From an uncultured virus (IMG/VR IMGVR_UViG_3300027743_000024) (lineage: Duplodnaviria; Heunggongvirae; Uroviricota; Caudoviricetes): a stretch of DNA of 64,000 nucleotides. The translations under genes and the position numbers were made by a program. How positions within the stretch are numbered: position 1 is the stretch's first letter; every line of letters starts with the position of its first letter. Where the stretch lies: IMG/VR virus record IMGVR_UViG_3300027743_000024, one strand, 5' to 3'. Below are positions 30,221 to 57,944 of this stretch, piece by piece. The notes beneath the pieces are model-generated. The model saw only the letters and a program-made list of their open reading frames with translations. It ran no database searches and was not told where the DNA came from.

Positions 30221-30838
30221 TTAAGTGTGTAAATCTGTATATGTAAAATCATATGGTTGAAAGCATATGTTTATTAATTTAGAAATCTTGTCTAGCATTA
30301 ATGCAAGTTGTTCTTCTGTAATGCAATTTTTATATTCTGTTGTTGATGCACAAACTCCACCTATAACTTCTACTGGATAAGTTGTTGAATCTTTTATATT
30401 TTCATACAATATATTAATTGTAGAATCAGTACATGGTCCAGAAAAATTTAATGTAAATTGACTGTTTCCATTATTCGAACTAGCAATAATTTCTGATTGA
30501 CTATCATTAAATAAACTTACAATATCATCAATTTCCCCTGAATTAATTATTGGCATAGGTGGAGTTATTAATACACCACCTATTGAAATTGAAATTGTTC
30601 CTGTATTATAACTAAGAGTTATGGATCCAGTACTAAGTTGCTCTTCTATAATTAATGCAACTTTATAACATTCAAGCAATTCTAAATAAGCATTTAACAA
30701 AACTAAATTTCTCTGATTCTCTACAATACATTTTCTTCCGTATTTTAGGTTATCAGCAAATTCATTTGTTAATTGACCAAACTTACATCCAGTCAATTGC
30801 ATTCTTACATCTAAATCTTGTTGAGATATGTAATCCAT
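30221..30838 (-). CDS. Tail hub-like protein
   Basis: 205 aa; LKYGRKC motif, Cys-containing C-terminus; synteny. Confidence 0.45.
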   Translation of the reverse strand: MDYISQQDLDVRMQLTGCKFGQLTNEFADNLKYGRKCIVENQRNLVLLNAYLELLECYKVALIIEEQLSTGSITLSYNTGTISISIGGVLITPPMPIINSGEIDDIVSLFNDSQSEIIASSNNGNSQFTLNFSGPCTDSTINILYENIKDSTTYPVEVIGGVCASTTEYKNCITEEQLALMLDKISKLINICFQPYDFTYTDLHT

Positions 30839-32825: not shown

Positions 32826-33407
32826 TTATTTACAATTTTTACAGTTAGTATTAGAACACAATTTGTTTACTTGTGTTAGTATGTTGTTGAAATATGTTGA
32901 GTTTCCGCAATTTGCAGAATATATTAATCCTTTTAATAATGCATAAGCTTTAAGAGCTTTATTCATTTTGTCTTCATTGCATCCATTACAATCTAAATCT
33001 AGATTTGCAAACATAGACATAACACAGCATTGAGCCTGACAATAAAATGCCTGACTAATAACTTGATGGTATTCTTCACCATCAGCAATAACTGTATATG
33101 TAAATTTGATTATTTGATCTGCTATTGCAGAACCAGATGCTCCACCAATTACATCAGATGTAATTAAGTATTCAAATGTGGTGTCATCTGTTGGGAAGTT
33201 ACCTGTTGCAAACAGGTCTATAGAGTAAGTGTTTCCACTTGATAATTCAATTGTAAGTATTGCAGATGTTGCTCCAGCTAATTCTGGATTAGGATCTCCC
33301 CATCCAGTTTCATTTGTAGTTTCTGCATAAGCTCCTGTAGTTTCTACAAAAGTTAATTCTGCACAATCACTTGATTGACAGATTTCAAAATTTAATATTA
33401 ATCCCAT
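32826..33407 (-). CDS. Tail hub-like protein
   Basis: 193 aa; ETTGAY...NETGWG motif, Cys-rich C-terminus; synteny. Confidence 0.5.
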   Translation of the reverse strand: MGLILNFEICQSSDCAELTFVETTGAYAETTNETGWGDPNPELAGATSAILTIELSSGNTYSIDLFATGNFPTDDTTFEYLITSDVIGGASGSAIADQIIKFTYTVIADGEEYHQVISQAFYCQAQCCVMSMFANLDLDCNGCNEDKMNKALKAYALLKGLIYSANCGNSTYFNNILTQVNKLCSNTNCKNCK

Positions 33408-33543: not shown

Positions 33544-34890
33544 TTAAGACGCTAGTGTTACAGTTGCTGGAGCTAAAGGAATTGAAGTCATCCAAGCATT
33601 TAGGATGTCTAACAAATCAAGGCACTCAGCAGAAGTGTCTGCAGAATCTAATGTTCTGTCAAATGGATCAGCAGCAGCAGCATCAATAGATGGAGTTGCA
33701 ATCATGATAGATTTGTTAGCAAACATTCCCATGTTAGCACCAGCACCAGTTGTTACATCACTTATAGTGATTGTAATTACATTGTACAAGTATTTAACTT
33801 TAATGTTAGCAGCTGCTCCATAAGATGCAGTTGCAGGAGTTGTAATTACAAACTTAGTTGCAGACAATATGTATTTAATTTCATATTGAACTCCATCAAT
33901 GTCAATAATTTCTCCTGGACGTAATCCAGTTGTTGCAGTTGCAACAGTAACAACATCTTCATTAATTACAGTTGTAACATTTCCAGTTGGAGATGTTGCA
34001 GCAGCAGCAACGTTACCAGATGTAACAAATGTTGCAGAAGACAAATATGCCAATGTTGGGATAGGCCATTTAGTTCTGTTAAGAACACCTTCAAATTGGT
34101 AGTTGTAATTTTCTTTTGTAAAGATTTGGTTGTAAGTTCCAACACCAGGATCCATTGTTTGAACAAGAGAAGAAGTAGTTGTAGTTCCAAATCCACTTGC
34201 ATCATCAACTTGTGCAGAAAAATACACATATAATGGAGCGTAAGTTGTATTTTGGAATTGATTTACATCAAGACCCCACATTTCAACACCATAAGCAGAA
34301 GCTCCAGTTAAACCATAAACACCAGTTCCATTACCAATTGTAACAGCTTTAATAACCTTAATTCCAGCTGGTTGAGAACCATAAGCAGAATTGTTGATTA
34401 AGCTTGTAATTTGAGTTGCAATGTTTAATTGTGTTGCAGCTGCAGCAGATGTGAAAGAAATTCTAAGCATTTCTGGACGCTCAGAGAAAAATTGTTTGTC
34501 CCATTTAAATCTAACTGATAGATTATAAAGAGTGTCATTGTTTACTTCAATAGATCCAGCTGCAGCAGTAGTAACACCATCAACTACTGATCCACGTTGG
34601 TAACCAACTGTTGCAACACAACGTCTTGCTGGAGCATAATGCTCAGCATTGTAGCTTGTTACAGAAGTTCCTTTAACTGGGAAAGAGCGTTTTAGATCTC
34701 CATTAGCTAATTTGTTAACTAAATAGATTGTAGGTTGTGTTGTGATTGTGTCTCCACCTGCTGGGTTAAGAGCTGTCATGTCAGCACCAACAATAGCAGT
34801 TTGCTTAGTAATAGCTGCAATATTAGTATTGTTAGCATCTAAAGCTGCTCCATTACCAATAAAGATTTCATTTACATTAATAGTATTCAT
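33544..34890 (-). CDS. Auxiliary capsid/structural protein (448 aa)
   Basis: Ala/Thr-rich; CGT-biased Arg codons as in the capsid gene, suggesting high expression; synteny. Confidence 0.6.
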   Translation of the reverse strand: MNTINVNEIFIGNGAALDANNTNIAAITKQTAIVGADMTALNPAGGDTITTQPTIYLVNKLANGDLKRSFPVKGTSVTSYNAEHYAPARRCVATVGYQRGSVVDGVTTAAAGSIEVNNDTLYNLSVRFKWDKQFFSERPEMLRISFTSAAAATQLNIATQITSLINNSAYGSQPAGIKVIKAVTIGNGTGVYGLTGASAYGVEMWGLDVNQFQNTTYAPLYVYFSAQVDDASGFGTTTTSSLVQTMDPGVGTYNQIFTKENYNYQFEGVLNRTKWPIPTLAYLSSATFVTSGNVAAAATSPTGNVTTVINEDVVTVATATTGLRPGEIIDIDGVQYEIKYILSATKFVITTPATASYGAAANIKVKYLYNVITITISDVTTGAGANMGMFANKSIMIATPSIDAAAADPFDRTLDSADTSAECLDLLDILNAWMTSIPLAPATVTLAS

Positions 34891-54296: not shown

Positions 54297-54335
54297 AGAT
54301 GAGTGAACGTTAATAGCGTTTGCTCATCTTTTTAT
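54297..54335 (+). terminator. Intrinsic terminator
   Basis: AGATGAGTGAACG/CGTTTGCTCATCT stem followed by T-run. Confidence 0.7.
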
Positions 54336-54357
54336 TTTAATTTAAATTTATAATCAA

Positions 54358-54618
54358 ATGGAAAAATATAAATTAAAAAGAATTGATGATGGTTTAGTTA
54401 AAGAAGCAAACAAAGTTATTTACATTGAATGGAATGACAATGGTACATTTAAATCTAAACATGATGAAGCTGCTATTGGAAGAAGTCTTATGTTAGATTC
54501 AAATAATTTTAATTATACTTGGTTAACAACTCAAATAGTTGAAATATTAGAAGAAAAAGACAAATACATTAAGTTTAAAACAGAAAATTCAACATATGAA
54601 CTTGTTCAACATTTTTAA
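54358..54618 (+). CDS. Hypothetical phage protein
   Basis: 86 aa; TWLTTQIVEI...FKTENSTYEL. Confidence 0.65.
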   Translation: MEKYKLKRIDDGLVKEANKVIYIEWNDNGTFKSKHDEAAIGRSLMLDSNNFNYTWLTTQIVEILEEKDKYIKFKTENSTYELVQHF

Positions 54619-54778
54619 AAAGAAGCCCATCATCATTCCACTTGTGTTCAACGGACAAGCAAATGGACAGTGGGTAGAATGTTTTAAAGGAGACGATACA
54701 TACAACAAGTTAGTTAAGTTGTATGGAGAACCATTGCCTAAACAAATTGAAGTAAAGCCAGTAGAACCGGAAAAGTAG
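54596..54778 (+). CDS. Hypothetical protein
   Basis: 60-aa ORF overlapping previous gene. Confidence 0.45.
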   Translation: MNLFNIFKKKPIIIPLVFNGQANGQWVECFKGDDTYNKLVKLYGEPLPKQIEVKPVEPEK

Positions 54779-54790
54779 AAACAACACCTC

Positions 54791-54910
54791 CCCAGTTTCT
54801 TGTTGACTATGCACAGTCAAAGGATTTATAAGGACCATACAAGTAGAAAATACATCTCTGATTTTCTTGTTCCGTGCGTAGGGAAGGATTTAAAGGAGAG
54901 TGAGATTGGG
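54791..54910 (+). ncRNA. Structured RNA candidate with loop-loop pairing
   Basis: Closing stem CCCAGTTTC/GAGATTGGG; loops ATGCAC and GTGCGT complementary. Confidence 0.45.
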
Positions 54911-54955
54911 CGACGTTTATCTTTTGTAACTCAACAACAAACAGAAAAAGATGTT

Positions 54956-55041
54956 AGTCAGGTAATGCGTAATGTGGAAATGGCATCACATCCTTTAGTA
55001 CAATGGTTGCATCGTTACAGGTTCGAGTCCTGTTCTGACTA
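54956..55041 (+). ncRNA. tRNA-like RNA A (no canonical anticodon arm)
   Basis: Acceptor AGTCAGG/TCTGACT+A, T-arm ACAGG-TTCGAGT-CCTGT. Confidence 0.6.
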
Positions 55042-55047
55042 CAAATT

Positions 55048-55151
55048 TCACTCTTAGTGTTATGAGGTAAAACACTTTGACCCTTATATCGCCTGATGTT
55101 GCAACATCCGAATATAAGGAGAGTAAGTTGGTTCGAATCCAACAGAGTGGA
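55048..55151 (+). ncRNA. tRNA-like RNA B with extended central hairpin
   Basis: Acceptor TCACTCT/AGAGTGG+A, D-arm GTGT/ACAC, T-arm GTTGG-TTCGAAT-CCAAC; long CCTTATAT...ATATAAGG arm capped by GATGTTGCAACATC. Confidence 0.6.
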
Positions 55152-55156
55152 CAAAT

Positions 55157-55228
55157 AGTCAGGTGGCGGAATTGGTTAGACGCAGGTATCTCATGATATG
55201 ATTGCAGGTTCGAATCCTGTTCTGACTA
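55157..55228 (+). ncRNA. tRNA-like RNA C (Leu-type D arm, shortened CAT-containing arm)
   Basis: AGTCAGG-TG-GCGGAATTGGTTAGACGC...GCAGG-TTCGAAT-CCTGT-TCTGACT-A; central GTATC-TCAT-GATAT has no 7-nt loop. Confidence 0.6.
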
Positions 55229-55380
55229 CTTTATCTGCTGAAAGCAAACATATAAAGCTGGACCTACGGAATAGGTTTATAATCCCAACCAAGATGGAGT
55301 TGTTTGTAGACAGATACTCGTACCAGCTTATATATTATGTATAAGACGAAGTATTCACACACTTGGAGTGACAGGAATAT

Positions 55381-55402
55381 AAAGAGAGGGTAACACCTCT
55401 CT
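55381..55402. terminator. Bidirectional terminator at end of endonuclease gene
   Basis: AAAGAGAGG-GTAACA-CCTCTCTTT inverted repeat. Confidence 0.65.
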
Positions 55403-56056
55403 TTATTTATATTTAAAAACAAGTTTATTACAGCTTTTAGCTTTATTTCTACAACATCTTGCTATATTAGCAGGGTCAATGTTGTAAAAAGCGGCACATT
55501 CTGCTACAGATGAAAACTCAGATATATTAATATTGTTTTTATATACTAATACAGTCTTTTTTTGTTTTTCTCTAAAATGTTGGACATTTTTGAGTTTAAT
55601 GAAAGATAAAGGATTAGTATAAAACAAATTATAAGCTTTTATAGCTTTTTTAGATGTGTTAAATTCTCCAATATAATAAACAGTATTAAGATATGAGCAT
55701 CTTACACGATACTTTCCTTTGTATATATCATACTTTTTGGCTGTAGTTTTAGGAAGATAATCTTTACATTGCAGTTTACCACCTATATGATTATTACATA
55801 ATTTGTTTGATTGATAATAACTTATCCAGTATATTTCTCTTTGTTCCCAAGATTCTTCTATACATTCTTCAATTATATCTATAATAGGTAATTTATTAGA
55901 TTTGGCTAAATATTTTATCCAGTTAGCTAATCTTGATTTTAGCCTTTTTGCATTAGATATATGAGAAGAATACCTGTTTTTTATATTACCAGTTTTTCCT
56001 ATATATCTTATTTCTAAGGTATCAGGATCCATTAACTTATAAATGTATATTTTCAT
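55403..56056 (-). CDS. Free-standing GIY-YIG homing endonuclease with AP2-like and NUMOD1-like domains
   Basis: YIYKL...RYIGKT..R..H; YIGEFNT..AIKAYN; FSSVAECA...NIARCCRNK; antisense to neighbours. Confidence 0.85.
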   Translation of the reverse strand: MKIYIYKLMDPDTLEIRYIGKTGNIKNRYSSHISNAKRLKSRLANWIKYLAKSNKLPIIDIIEECIEESWEQREIYWISYYQSNKLCNNHIGGKLQCKDYLPKTTAKKYDIYKGKYRVRCSYLNTVYYIGEFNTSKKAIKAYNLFYTNPLSFIKLKNVQHFREKQKKTVLVYKNNINISEFSSVAECAAFYNIDPANIARCCRNKAKSCNKLVFKYK

Positions 56057-56061
56057 ATTAT

Positions 56062-56094
56062 AATATACATAAATTACCTGTCATATGCAACTTA
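56062..56094 (-). promoter_or_regulatory. Putative late promoter of the endonuclease
   Basis: TAAG TTGCAT N17 TATATT, 5 nt before the ATG. Confidence 0.7.
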
Positions 56095-56148
56095 TTTGCA
56101 TATTTTTTTGGAGTGACAGGTAATAACTAAACGCTAGTGGGTAAAGCG

Positions 56149-56262
56149 TAGCAACAGAATGTCCTATTCATACTACATTAATCTATATAGCTGGTCAAGT
56201 CAGTATGTGAGCACATAAGGACACATAATAGATTATAAGGTAGTGTGTTGTAAAGGTTGCTG
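56149..56262 (+). ncRNA. Structured RNA candidate (nested stems, pseudoknot)
   Basis: TAGCAAC/GTTGCTG, CATACTAC/GTAGTGTG, TAATCTAT/ATAGATTA; TGTCCT/AGGACA. Confidence 0.45.
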
Positions 56263-56264
56263 AT

Positions 56265-56406
56265 AGTCAGGTGGTATATTAGAAAACATTTGGTAATATG
56301 GAGCTGCAGTGAAGTATTACATGGCAGGTTAAGTAAAGAGTAATTACTTTATGTAAACTGATAAAGGAATCATCCTTTGGTACCAGGGCAGAACTGGTCC
56401 TGACTA
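56265..56406 (+). ncRNA. tRNA-like RNA D (142 nt, expanded interior)
   Basis: Acceptor AGTCAGG/CCTGACT+A, T-like arm ACCAG-GGCAGAA-CTGGT, several internal hairpins. Confidence 0.55.
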
Positions 56407-56437
56407 CAATTAACAATTAATATTTAACTTTGAACCC

Positions 56438-56740
56438 ATGAAAGTAGACTTAGATGATGAAAAAGCAGCTATTGGCTTAGAAAAAAATAGTAAGGATTGT
56501 AAACATGGATGGAATGATGGTAGTTGCTGTTGTAATTGCAGTAATTTAGTATTAGTTAATAGACATCCAAGCAATACTTTAGTTGAAGCTAAAGGAAGCA
56601 TATCAACTACTTTTGGTTTTGGATGTAAAGCAATGACATTTGATGAGAGTGGAGAAAATAAAAACAAAATAGATAGAATAATATTTAGCTCATCTTTACA
56701 TGGAATGTGTGAATTACATTGTAGAAATAAACCAAAATAA
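56438..56740 (+). CDS. Cys-rich hypothetical protein
   Basis: 100 aa; CCCNC and HGMCELH motifs. Confidence 0.55.
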   Translation: MKVDLDDEKAAIGLEKNSKDCKHGWNDGSCCCNCSNLVLVNRHPSNTLVEAKGSISTTFGFGCKAMTFDESGENKNKIDRIIFSSSLHGMCELHCRNKPK

Positions 56741-56741
56741 A

Positions 56742-56829
56742 TGTGTTGTTCCTTTGAGAAAGGAATTGGTTAGAGAGATAAAGTGAAGGTTATGCTAACA
56801 CTCTACAACACAGAGGACTTCTCATCCTC
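56742..56829 (+). ncRNA. Structured RNA candidate with kissing loops
   Basis: TGTGTTGT/ACAACACA stem; loops TGAGA and TCTCA complementary. Confidence 0.5.
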
Positions 56830-56835
56830 AAACAT

Positions 56836-56907
56836 TGGACAGAGCAGGGTATTGTAGCTTGAGGTTCCTAGGCTCAAGAAGATGGGTTTCAAATACCCAC
56901 TGTCCAG
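56836..56907 (+). ncRNA. tRNA-like RNA E (degenerate D arm, 9-nt central loop)
   Basis: TGGACAG/CTGTCCA+G, T-arm TGGGT-TTCAAAT-ACCCA, CTTGAG-GTTCCTAGG-CTCAAG. Confidence 0.55.
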
Positions 56908-56914
56908 CAAAAAT

Positions 56915-57005
56915 AGTCAGGTGGCGGAATTGGTTAGACGCTATATAGCAGTTTGGAAACAAGCCCAGCTACGAAAAATTACAGGTTCGAATCCTGTCCT
57001 GACTA
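56915..57005 (+). ncRNA. tRNA-like RNA F (anticodon arm replaced by GAAA-capped hairpin)
   Basis: Same 5' 27 nt as RNA C; TAGC-A-GTTTG-GAAA-CAAGC-CCA-GCTA; ACAGG-TTCGAAT-CCTGT-CCTGACT-A. Confidence 0.65.
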
Positions 57006-57006
57006 C

Positions 57007-57113
57007 AATAGGTTGATTGGGGAAAGCTGCTCATGCGGAAGAGGAGGATATAATCCAAAGTAATGCCAATCATAAAAGCAGATGTCCACGCACCCATCTT
57101 CTGCTTTCCTATT
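57007..57113 (+). ncRNA. Structured RNA candidate (three-way junction)
   Basis: AATAGG/CCTATT, TGATTGG/CCAATCA, AAAGCAGA/TCTGCTTT. Confidence 0.5.
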
Positions 57114-57149
57114 TTATTTAATTATTAATATTTAAACTAAAAAAAACTA

Positions 57150-57290
57150 ATGAAAATAGTAATAACAATAGGAGATTTTAAAGTTGAACTATCTGATAAT
57201 ACTGATAGTGCTATAAAATACATTTTTGTAGAAATTAGACAAACAATAACAAGTGTTGTAACAGATTATAAATCACTAAACAAACAATAA
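57150..57290 (+). CDS. Mini-gene (46 aa) ending SLNKQ
   Basis: ORF read manually; ends in array junction motif. Confidence 0.5.
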   Translation: MKIVITIGDFKVELSDNTDSAIKYIFVEIRQTITSVVTDYKSLNKQ

Positions 57291-57294
57291 TAAT

Positions 57295-57492
57295 ATGGCA
57301 GACATAACAAAATGTAAAGGTATAGATTGTTCAATTAAAGATACATGTTATAGATATACAGCAATTGAATCAATATTGCAATCTTACTTTATGGAATCTC
57401 CTATTAAGGATGGTAAATGTGATATGTATTGGGGTGAGGATGCTGAAGCTATATTTAATCAGTTAAAAGGAATACTAAACAAACAAGACTAA
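57295..57492 (+). CDS. Cys-containing mini-gene ending LNKQD
   Basis: MADITKCKGIDC...CYRY; 65 aa. Confidence 0.65.
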   Translation: MADITKCKGIDCSIKDTCYRYTAIESILQSYFMESPIKDGKCDMYWGEDAEAIFNQLKGILNKQD

Positions 57493-57623
57493 TATGAAAA
57501 CAGAATTATGTTAGAAAACGAAAATTTGAATGAAGCAGAAAAACCGCAATTGAATATAGGTGCTGTTAGGTATCAGTATTTTTAAACAGAAGGGGAGAAA
57601 TTAAAAACTAAAATTATATAGAT

Positions 57624-57944
57624 ATGAGAAATGAAAAAACAGTAACAACAAAATTAATGATGAGCTTGTACGCAATGGCTTCCCATCAAGGTTTTTTAGG
57701 TGTTAGAACAGGTAATAATGATTTAGATTTATTTGTTTTAAATCAATGGATTAGAAAGCGTATTAATATCCATATTTTAATTGAATTAGACTATGAAGAA
57801 GGAATGTATAGAATAAATGCTTGTAATATACAACGTGAGCCTGAATGGATGTTAAATAAAATATACGATAAATATTTATTCAAAAATTATGAATTCGCTT
57901 TATTTACAGGTATTAGTGAATTTTTAAAACAAAACTATTTATGA
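57624..57944 (+). CDS. Hypothetical protein (cassette 1)
   Basis: 106-aa ORF. Confidence 0.6.
   Translation: MRNEKTVTTKLMMSLYAMASHQGFLGVRTGNNDLDLFVLNQWIRKRINIHILIELDYEEGMYRINACNIQREPEWMLNKIYDKYLFKNYEFALFTGISEFLKQNYL

Follow-up and report, generated by a model that had tools for sequence, protein, structure and literature searches.

Transfer RNA-shaped, non-decoding RNAs with a constant frame and variable cores in an RNA island of a crAss-like phage

A stretch of 64,000 nucleotides from an uncultured virus of the Caudoviricetes (IMG/VR record IMGVR_UViG_3300027743_000024), called the window here in its full length, was found to contain six transfer RNA (tRNA)-shaped elements on the plus strand between positions 54956 and 57005, four of which belong to a widespread, phage-specific family. 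Members of this family, designated as tRNA shells, carry the acceptor pairing AGUCAGG/YCUGACU, the discriminator base A73, and a T arm around a core that is not an anticodon arm, and they are not decoding tRNAs. The explanation that we favor, with a probability of roughly 0.55, is that the shells would be non-decoding small RNAs which are matured and stabilized by tRNA enzymes and carry swappable cores as their payload. The frame, its conservation, the flanks typical of tRNA genes, the selection on some of the cores, and the exchange at the frame borders were all observed.

The six elements, designated as E1 to E6, are the following:

54956..55041, plus strand: E1, 86 nt, an AGUCAGG shell with its own conserved core
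55048..55151, plus strand: E2, 104 nt, with another acceptor (TCACTCT/AGAGTGG) and discriminator A
55157..55228, plus strand: E3, 72 nt, a minimal leucine-type AGUCAGG shell
56265..56406, plus strand: E4, 142 nt, an AGUCAGG shell with a conserved core of 108 nt
56836..56907, plus strand: E5, 72 nt, with the acceptor TGGACAG/CTGTCCA and discriminator G
56915..57005, plus strand: E6, 91 nt, a leucine-type AGUCAGG shell with a GAAA-capped core

The preliminary description of this region had assigned a 7-bp acceptor stem, a discriminator base, and a T-type hairpin with a 5-bp stem and a 7-nt loop to all six elements, and each of these parts was recovered from the sequence, the folds, and the frame finder. 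The T-arm assignment held for the hairpin shape of all six, but not for the loop of E4, whose sequence GGCAGAA is of a non-tRNA type. ARAGORN, the Rfam alignments, and the folds agreed with the statement that no element has a canonical anticodon arm, and the acceptor AGTCAGG was indeed common to E1, E3, E4, and E6 at the lengths listed above. The 3′ acceptor strand reads TCTGACT in E1 and E3 and CCTGACT in E4 and E6, followed by A, and the frame ends return within the window as direct repeats of 30–31 nt (families D1 and D2). By the family definition given above, these four elements are shells and E2 and E5 are not, while all six have T at position −1 and C after the discriminator.

The cores of the window elements are 20–108 nt long. 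The core of E3 consists of a 5-bp stem with a UCAU tetraloop, and that of E6 is a bulged hairpin (fold z-score −2.9) capped by the GAAA-tetraloop hairpin that had been described earlier (GUUUG-GAAA-CAAGC). The D arm of E3 and E6, GGCGGAATTGGTTAGACGC, is of the leucine type with the pattern GGCGGAAU(U)GGUAGACGC. The D-like hairpins of E1 and E4 are of another kind, with GG in the loop, and the D regions of E2 and E5 are not of the leucine type. E2 contains a 6-bp D-like hairpin and a long hairpin that replaces the anticodon arm, and its fold (z-score −3.0) was matched in stability by none of 200 shuffles. E5 lacks both a normal D arm and the spacer at positions 8–9, and the 9-nt loop on its 6-bp stem could be read as a 7-nt UUCCUAG closed by a G·G mismatch. 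E5 is the nearest of the six to a real tRNA, and it was called by neither ARAGORN nor Rfam.

Undetermined calls by tRNA finders had been expected, and ARAGORN reported E3 alone, as "tRNA-???" with a 2-base anticodon; no true tRNA was called in the window by ARAGORN or Rfam. With the Rfam tRNA model (RF00005, gathering threshold 29 bits), E6 and E3 scored above the threshold (39.3 and 37.3 bits), E1 scored below it (24.0 bits), and E2, E4, and E5 gave no match even at E ≤ 10, while the true tRNAs of related islands reached 50–75 bits. In the corresponding alignments, the 17-nt anticodon arm was replaced by 33 nt in E6 and 14 nt in E3. Model R1 gave 77.4 bits for E6 and 68.5 bits for E3, both of which are members of its training alignment, and 25 bits for E4, which is outside of it. 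Neither ARAGORN nor Rfam found a transfer-messenger RNA (tmRNA) in the window; position 3–70 of the frame is U-A, as opposed to the G3:U70 in the tRNA-Ala-like domain of tmRNA.

The idea that a constant scaffold with a variable interior is kept by selection was strongly borne out by the search of phage metagenomes. In viral contigs, the 22-nt 3′ half of the frame was detected at no fewer than 138 loci, and the 80 named loci of this search represent 70 contigs, some of which carry up to seven copies. Among the matches listed, there were 164 distinct 3′ contexts, 141 of which contained AGTCAG[GA] at most 260 nt upstream, delimiting elements of 67–191 nt; several of the other 23 contexts were one-letter variants or were cut by the end of the locus. 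When the 5′ half alone was used, at least 122 viral loci were retrieved, and the matches listed comprised 110 distinct framed elements, along with six further matches whose frame could not be closed. In this set, the unsearched half was present as CCTGACT in 84 of the 110 elements, the T stem ACAGG/CCTGT in 87, and the discriminator A73 in 90. By contrast, among 185,579 prokaryotic genomes, one per species, the 3′ half was present in only 22 loci, every one of which was a contig of a metagenome-assembled genome, and 13 of these lay on contigs with Bacteroidota names. Because the 3′ half is so rare in prokaryotic genomes, the shell frame is not a copy of a host tRNA, and the AGUCAGG frame constitutes a widespread phage-specific family.

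The members of this family do not behave as decoding tRNAs. ARAGORN called 31 of the 141 shells among the matches listed, six with 2- or 4-base anticodons and 25 distributed over nine isotypes. Across the loci and the window, the frame finder detected 367 distinct framed elements, and full-length standard tRNA calls were obtained for 26 of the 168 AGTCAG frames versus 147 of the 199 frames with other acceptors. In the same 141 shells, U8 was present in 136, U before the T stem in 121, and a strict leucine-type D-arm pattern in 70. The consensus D arm of the family, GGCGGAAUUGGUAGACGC, resembles the D arms of phage tRNA-Leu genes that are annotated or were called by ARAGORN (T5 tRNA-Leu; locus L176), and the family T loop is UUCGAAU. 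The shells of other phages occur among true tRNAs, two tmRNAs, and one group I intron; they cluster in one region on one strand, and a single phage can have up to a dozen or more differently filled shells. In some shells, from loci L035, L073, L089, and L136, the additional RNA sits in the D loop, flanked by GGCGGAA and GGTAGACGC, where it replaces or accompanies the insert at the anticodon position.

The flanks of the shells are those of true tRNA genes. C follows the discriminator in 165 of 168 shells and in all 147 true tRNAs, T occupies position −1 in 148 of 168 versus 110 of 147, and the full CCA is encoded in only 5 of 168 versus 9 of 147. These common flanks are the strongest indirect sign that the same enzymes may mature both shells and tRNAs. 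In the ARAGORN-canonical tRNAs of islands L001–L138, the C is mostly followed to give CAA or CTA, with CCA being rare (9/147), which suggests an unusual 3′-end rule shared by such phages or their hosts.

Selection on the frame was evident in an alignment of 68 shells, in which the 15 frame pairs were 96.6% paired, compared with 29–40% when the partner was slid, and the D stem showed double changes that keep the pairing. A subfamily related to E1, which was found without the use of the 3′ half of the frame, comprises 36 viral loci, and 23 of its sequences were aligned. Its T stem covaries freely, one pair occurring as CG, UA, GC, or UG and the following pair as AU, GU, GC, or UA, and its D-like hairpin covaries as well, while its seven acceptor pairs show only G·U changes. 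Across all frames, each acceptor variant seen more than once was a single transition that keeps a G·U pair. Since the T stem, the hairpin, and the D stem covary, the structure is selected at the RNA level.

This selection extends to some of the cores. The E1 core has an additional helix, a site at which insertions vary, and a D-like hairpin whose loop contains GG. In the E2 relatives of loci L014 and L048, pairs of the acceptor, the T stem, and the long hairpin have changed in a compensatory manner. In L048 (positions 995–1250), the tip of the long hairpin carries an insertion of about 150 nt; therefore, the second frame type also takes variable cargo. The relatives of E4 in L072 and L418–L420 contain at least four compensated pairs, and the altered T loop GGCAGAA of E4 stands against the canonical TTCGAAT in these loci. 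The cores of E1, E2, and E4 are thus conserved RNAs under RNA-level selection. Within E4, positions 56303–56310 hold the palindrome CTGCAG, whose counterpart in L418–L420 is GTGGCCAC, so that the palindromic nature is kept while the letters are changed; this may indicate loop–loop RNA dimerization.

The cores of the family as a whole were highly diverse, with lengths of 16–140 nt, and the 109 cores of at least 25 nt fell into 96 clusters, 86 of which were singletons. GNRA tetraloops occurred at approximately 0.044 per nucleotide of core, without enrichment over a rough expectation, and inner T-loop-like hairpins were found in only four cores. Antisense pairing within the window was not supported as a role of the cores, as the longest complementary runs of the six window cores to either strand of the 64-kb window were no longer than those of shuffled cores, and even the best case, a 15-mer in E4, was reached by 11 of 200 shuffles. 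A guide- or spacer-like origin of the cores likewise gained no support: a blastn search with the whole island, on which the similarity evidence is based, gave no match, and the core lengths were very uneven.

Exchange of cores was seen at E1, which is preceded by a leader. In this leader, positions 54763–54900 hold a tandem repeat (54763–54790 and 54831–54858, along with two copies of TTTCTTGTT..GGATTTAWAGG, each with a short hairpin), which occurs nowhere else in the window, is kept in loci L107 and L118, and may represent a promoter or operator pair of the RNA unit. Between the window and L107, the leader was identical at 166 of 181 positions (92%) and the frame ends at 9 of 9 and 22 of 25 positions, whereas the core matched at 18 of 47 positions, which is no better than chance, and the similarity stopped after the shell. 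In L118, the same leader is followed by yet another shell. This pattern shows that cores are exchanged at the frame borders. Intact tRNAs at the same loci had been named as evidence of decay, and the relatives (L107 and L118, as well as those of E1, E2, and E4) carry non-decoding shells instead. Introns that would restore an anticodon loop were likewise sought, and the group I model RF00028, which does find an intron in L012, had no match in the window.

The shells had no Rfam entry apart from partial tRNA matches, and full-text literature searching retrieved no description of the AGUCAGG family. The 2023 survey PMC10690425 mentions "tRNA or tRNA-like" candidates among 10,006 phage RNA motifs, and its supplements may include the family. 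No blastn match was obtained for the island among 50,697 phage records or for E6 among E. coli genomes. No co-located protein emerged, as 727 open reading frames (ORFs) of the 3-kb flanks gave no cluster in more than six loci. Of five large records with shells, one contained the CCA-enzyme domain PF01743 and none the Leu/Phe-tRNA protein transferase domain PF03588.

The contigs of four freshwater-sediment DNA runs were also compared with the island. The bins at the frame ends had summed depths of 27–912, compared with 0–11 in the neighboring bins, and many contig joints skipped 37–50 nt within E6. We interpret these signals as the shells of other organisms in the same communities and not as variants of this phage, and the many other contigs collected by the frame-end bins are consistent with numerous coexisting genomes that bear shells. 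The four runs contained no strain with an intact tRNA or an endonuclease-free form in place of the island, with several bins lacking cover.

The window is part of a crAss-like phage, as indicated by the portal protein, the large terminase, and the major head protein (PHROG profiles, E values of 1e-107 to 1e-131), and it also contains a minus-strand ORF of 4322 aa. From about 50.5 kb, the gene strand switches to plus and the genes turn small. The RNA island is a 2.4-kb stretch nearly devoid of protein genes and is organized into two units separated by an opposite-strand GIY-YIG endonuclease gene. Unit 1 consists of the leader, E1, E2, E3, a stem-closed spacer, and a terminator-like hairpin at 55379–55406, while unit 2 consists of E4, a Cys-rich ORF, module 2, E5, E6, and a conserved tail. 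The features accompanying the six elements are the following:

54779..54955, plus strand: leader of unit 1, with a tandem repeat of about 68 nt (direct repeat D5)
55229..55378, plus strand: spacer RNA with a weakly supported long-range closing helix AUAAAGCUGG/CCAGCUUAU
55379..55406, plus strand: hairpin resembling an intrinsic terminator, with a T run, closing unit 1
55403..56056, minus strand: GIY-YIG homing-endonuclease gene (Pfam PF01541; PHROG 5123 and 314)
56438..56740, plus strand: Cys-rich ORF of 100 aa, an orphan within the island
56743..56829, plus strand: module 2, a second RNA family directly upstream of E5
57006..57125, plus strand: 3′ tail of unit 2, a stem-closed stretch followed by a hairpin and a T-rich run

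Module 2 has constant ends and a variable middle, consisting of GTGTTGT, TTCCYTTGAGAAAGGAAT, 25–75 variable nucleotides, ACAACAC, and the hairpin GAGGACTTCTCATCCTC. The copy in the window (GUGUUGU...ACAACAC) has the closing hairpin GAGGACUUCUCAUCCUC, and its variable part holds the D-loop-like GGAATTGGTTAGA. The 25-mer at the 3′ end of module 2 was found in 97 viral loci, usually once per contig, and the 5′ end was kept in 62 of 67 distinct copies. An AGUCAGG-type shell was the next element in 34 of these 67, and a true tRNA or another RNA in the others. Module 2 has no Rfam family, and besides tRNA, every Rfam match in 54300–57700 was far below the threshold.

The GIY-YIG gene matched PF01541 with 26.6 bits. 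A 13-nt direct repeat, TTGGAGTGACAGG (55363–55375 and 56108–56120; D11), brackets the terminator and this gene as a unit of 745 bp, which suggests an insertion footprint; no endonuclease-free relative was found. The spacer RNA (55229–55378) had a fold z-score of −1.8 and no relative was found for it, and the fold of 56121–56264 was no better than shuffles. The Cys-rich ORF, which starts 31 nt after the end of E4 and is also rich in His, had only two near-identical relatives among 5.8 billion proteins and no Pfam or PHROG match. Downstream of E6, the segment 57056–57114 was approximately 90% identical in the otherwise unrelated phage loci L064, L052, and L138, an unusually good conservation for a mere terminator, while the fold of 57006–57128 was no better than shuffles.

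The closest known systems are RNA1, RNA2, and RNA3 of phage T5 and species 1 of phage T4. Such small stable tRNA-like RNAs of T4 and T5 have been known for decades, and to our knowledge no function has been found for them. In the T5 record AY543070, RNA1 (30501–30644), RNA2 (32959–33083), and RNA3 (33877–33949) are annotated as "tRNA-like stable RNA with unknown functions" (RNA1 and RNA2) or "putative tRNA-like RNA". As in the window, they lie in an RNA island with small stable RNAs, small ORFs, promoters, and homing-endonuclease genes, and their folds show an acceptor stem and a T arm around a long interior that lacks an anticodon arm. RNA1 has the leucine-type D arm GCCGGAATTGGTAGACGG, and RNA2 shares its T arm GCAGGTTCGAATCCTGT with E3 and contains an inner GTTCGATTC hairpin like that of some family cores. 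However, the acceptor sequences differ, and homology could not be demonstrated, with R1 giving 25 bits on the 3′ part of RNA2 and no match on RNA1, while the same model scored 38 bits on the true tRNA-Lys of T5. Moreover, T5 has a full set of true tRNAs and the window has none, and no single constant frame surrounding some hundred unrelated cores has been described for T5.

In the T4 record AF158101 (70908–71171), the species 1 and 2 RNAs (rnaC and rnaD) are small stable RNAs, and rnaC is annotated as such. They form the last part of the tRNA cluster, with the GIY-YIG gene segB as their neighbor. The rnaC RNA ends in the tRNA-type T arm CCGGGUUCGAAUCCCGG, which is closed by a short terminal helix, whereas rnaD shows no tRNA frame in its fold; both lack the 7-bp AGUCAGG acceptor and a leucine-type D arm, and each is present in one copy and forms no frame family.

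A phage tRNA-Leu gene is the most likely origin of the frame. E3, E6, and the consensus share the D arm, U8, T loop, A73, and flanks of the class II tRNA-Leu of bacteria and phages, but they differ from it in having no anticodon arm with a 5-bp stem and a 7-nt loop, no regular long variable arm, an A-U pair at 1–72, and no decoding. The interior is also replaced by other RNA in tmRNA, which keeps the acceptor and T arm but, unlike the shells, has G3:U70, pseudoknots, and a tag reading frame. Plant-mitochondrial t-elements, the MALAT1-associated small cytoplasmic RNA (mascRNA), and the tRNA-miRNA-encoded RNAs (TMERs) of gammaherpesviruses are non-decoding mimics of the acceptor and T arm that are read by RNase P and RNase Z, but they are single cis signals or precursors in eukaryotes or organelles, and none of them combines one frame with many cores in a family. 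In the engineered tRNA scaffold, which is man-made, the cargo replaces the anticodon arm and gains the processing and stability of a tRNA.

We infer transcription, processing, stability, and any function of the shells, with the established course of tRNA maturation as a guide, as follows. The island would be expressed as two operon-like transcripts, from which RNase P would cut the shells in front of A1, and the 3′ end would be trimmed and then completed to CCA. The L-shaped frame would make the RNA as long-lived as a tRNA, in line with the stability noted in the T5 and T4 records for their tRNA-like RNAs, while the core would project at the place of the anticodon arm and act as a folded payload on a hypothetical partner. 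The constant frame ends would also serve as joints at which cores and neighboring modules are swapped between phages. The preliminary description had proposed three uses, namely decoys against tRNA-targeting defences, carriers of variable RNA inserts, and processing punctuation, among which the carrier fits best.

Several observations weigh against this explanation. Compared with shuffles, the cores as a whole gain little in fold stability (mean z-score −0.60, with 32% below −1 and 7% below −2); therefore, many of them may not be tightly structured payloads. E4 lacks a T loop of the tRNA type, and the retrieved loci contain no relative of the E6 core. Above all, AGUCAGG/CCUGACU is held letter for letter, although RNase P, 3′ trimming, and the CCA enzyme need no particular acceptor sequence, so that an account consisting of maturation plus payload leaves the fixed acceptor sequence unaccounted for.

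This conservation points to a sequence-specific reading of the acceptor, and it is possible, albeit with considerable doubt, that the activity resides in the frame. The leucine-type shells would then be charged by the host leucyl-tRNA synthetase (LeuRS) or bound by a factor that reads the acceptor, and would act as non-decoding Leu-acceptors, sinks, or decoys. According to PMC9976931, E. coli LeuRS needs A73 and the tertiary core formed by the D and T loops, and it still charges a tRNA-Leu from which the anticodon and variable arms are missing. The features concerned are kept in the family (A73 in 90 of 110 elements among the matches listed, U8, D arm, and T loop), and E3, E6, and the consensus combine A73, U8, a leucine-type D loop, U before the T stem, and the T loop. 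Leucylation of these leucine-type frames is therefore plausible as a prediction from the E. coli rules, which may not be those of the host, and reading by LeuRS could be what holds the frame fixed. The earlier remark on LeuRS was accordingly apt for E3 and E6 with their leucine-type D arm, but not for E2 and E5, which have other acceptors and non-leucine D regions, with G73 in the case of E5. The weak folding and extreme diversity of the cores would also fit a dispensable core. On the other hand, the compensatory changes in the cores of E1, E2, and E4 show that these cores are more than filler, the upkeep of up to a dozen or more copies with different fillings in one phage would be hard to explain if the frame alone mattered, and the Leu/Phe-tRNA protein transferase domain was absent from all five large records. 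An active frame could nevertheless be compatible with matured shells carrying payloads, as the core would need only not to be an anticodon arm. A combined version, "RNA display", which we put forward just as tentatively, is that an invariant tRNA-Leu frame, recognized sequence-specifically, matured by the host, and probably leucylated, would present a fast-evolving set of more than 100 unrelated cores, swapped as cassettes at the frame ends, as effectors of host takeover or anti-defence, with the fixed acceptor as the handle for a hypothetical reader.

The remaining alternatives were judged to be less probable. If the shells were processing punctuation, they would be cis cleavage signals like the plant-mitochondrial t-elements, at which RNase P and the 3′ enzymes would divide a long transcript into single RNAs or messages, and the shells themselves would be by-products. 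The flanks resemble those of true tRNA genes and shells abut other RNA modules, with module 2 before E5 and E4 31 nt before the ORF, but this option is improbable, since E1, E2, and E3 stand back to back only 3–6 nt apart, such that most cuts would free only shells, and since it requires neither conserved cores nor a fixed acceptor sequence. Another reading is that the constant ends are mainly recombination sites at the DNA level, with the frame ends acting as homology arms for cassette exchange and endonuclease-driven gene conversion and the RNA shape being a relic of the ancestral tRNA gene. The breakpoint lies exactly at the frame borders, the unsearched half of the frame is also nearly identical in the 5′-half set (CCTGACT and T stem counts given above), and a GIY-YIG gene is located within the island, for which T4 segB between tRNA genes offers a precedent (SegB in the T4 tRNA cluster; PMC2330249). 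This possibility is weakened, and we consider it quite unlikely, because the D stem and the T stem of the E1 subfamily covary to keep the pairing and the acceptor changes are only those that keep G·U pairs, which are signatures of RNA selection rather than DNA identity. The least credible option is that the elements are decaying tRNA pseudogenes, or intron-interrupted or split tRNAs repaired at the RNA level. While E3 and E6 exceed the Rfam tRNA threshold, the E5 loop is readable as UUCCUAG, and the T loop of E4 is damaged, conservation across hundreds of phages is much stronger for the frame than for the flanks or cores, and the relatives have shells rather than intact tRNAs. In addition, there was no group I match in the window, cores of 16–140 nt are too short for such an intron, and conserved half anticodon stems beside the cores are absent.

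These results imply that tRNA-like stable RNAs are not oddities of two coliphages, but form a large family with one fixed frame, many cores, and exchange at the borders of the frame. Since tRNA finders assign random isotypes or "pseudo" calls to the shells, tRNA counts of phages can be distorted, as can the arguments on codon usage or suppressor tRNAs that are built on such counts. The fixed frame provides a concrete experimental handle, as it is amenable to assays of cleavage by RNase P, addition of CCA, and charging with leucine. Should the cores prove to be effectors, they would represent a new class of phage regulatory or counter-defence RNA.

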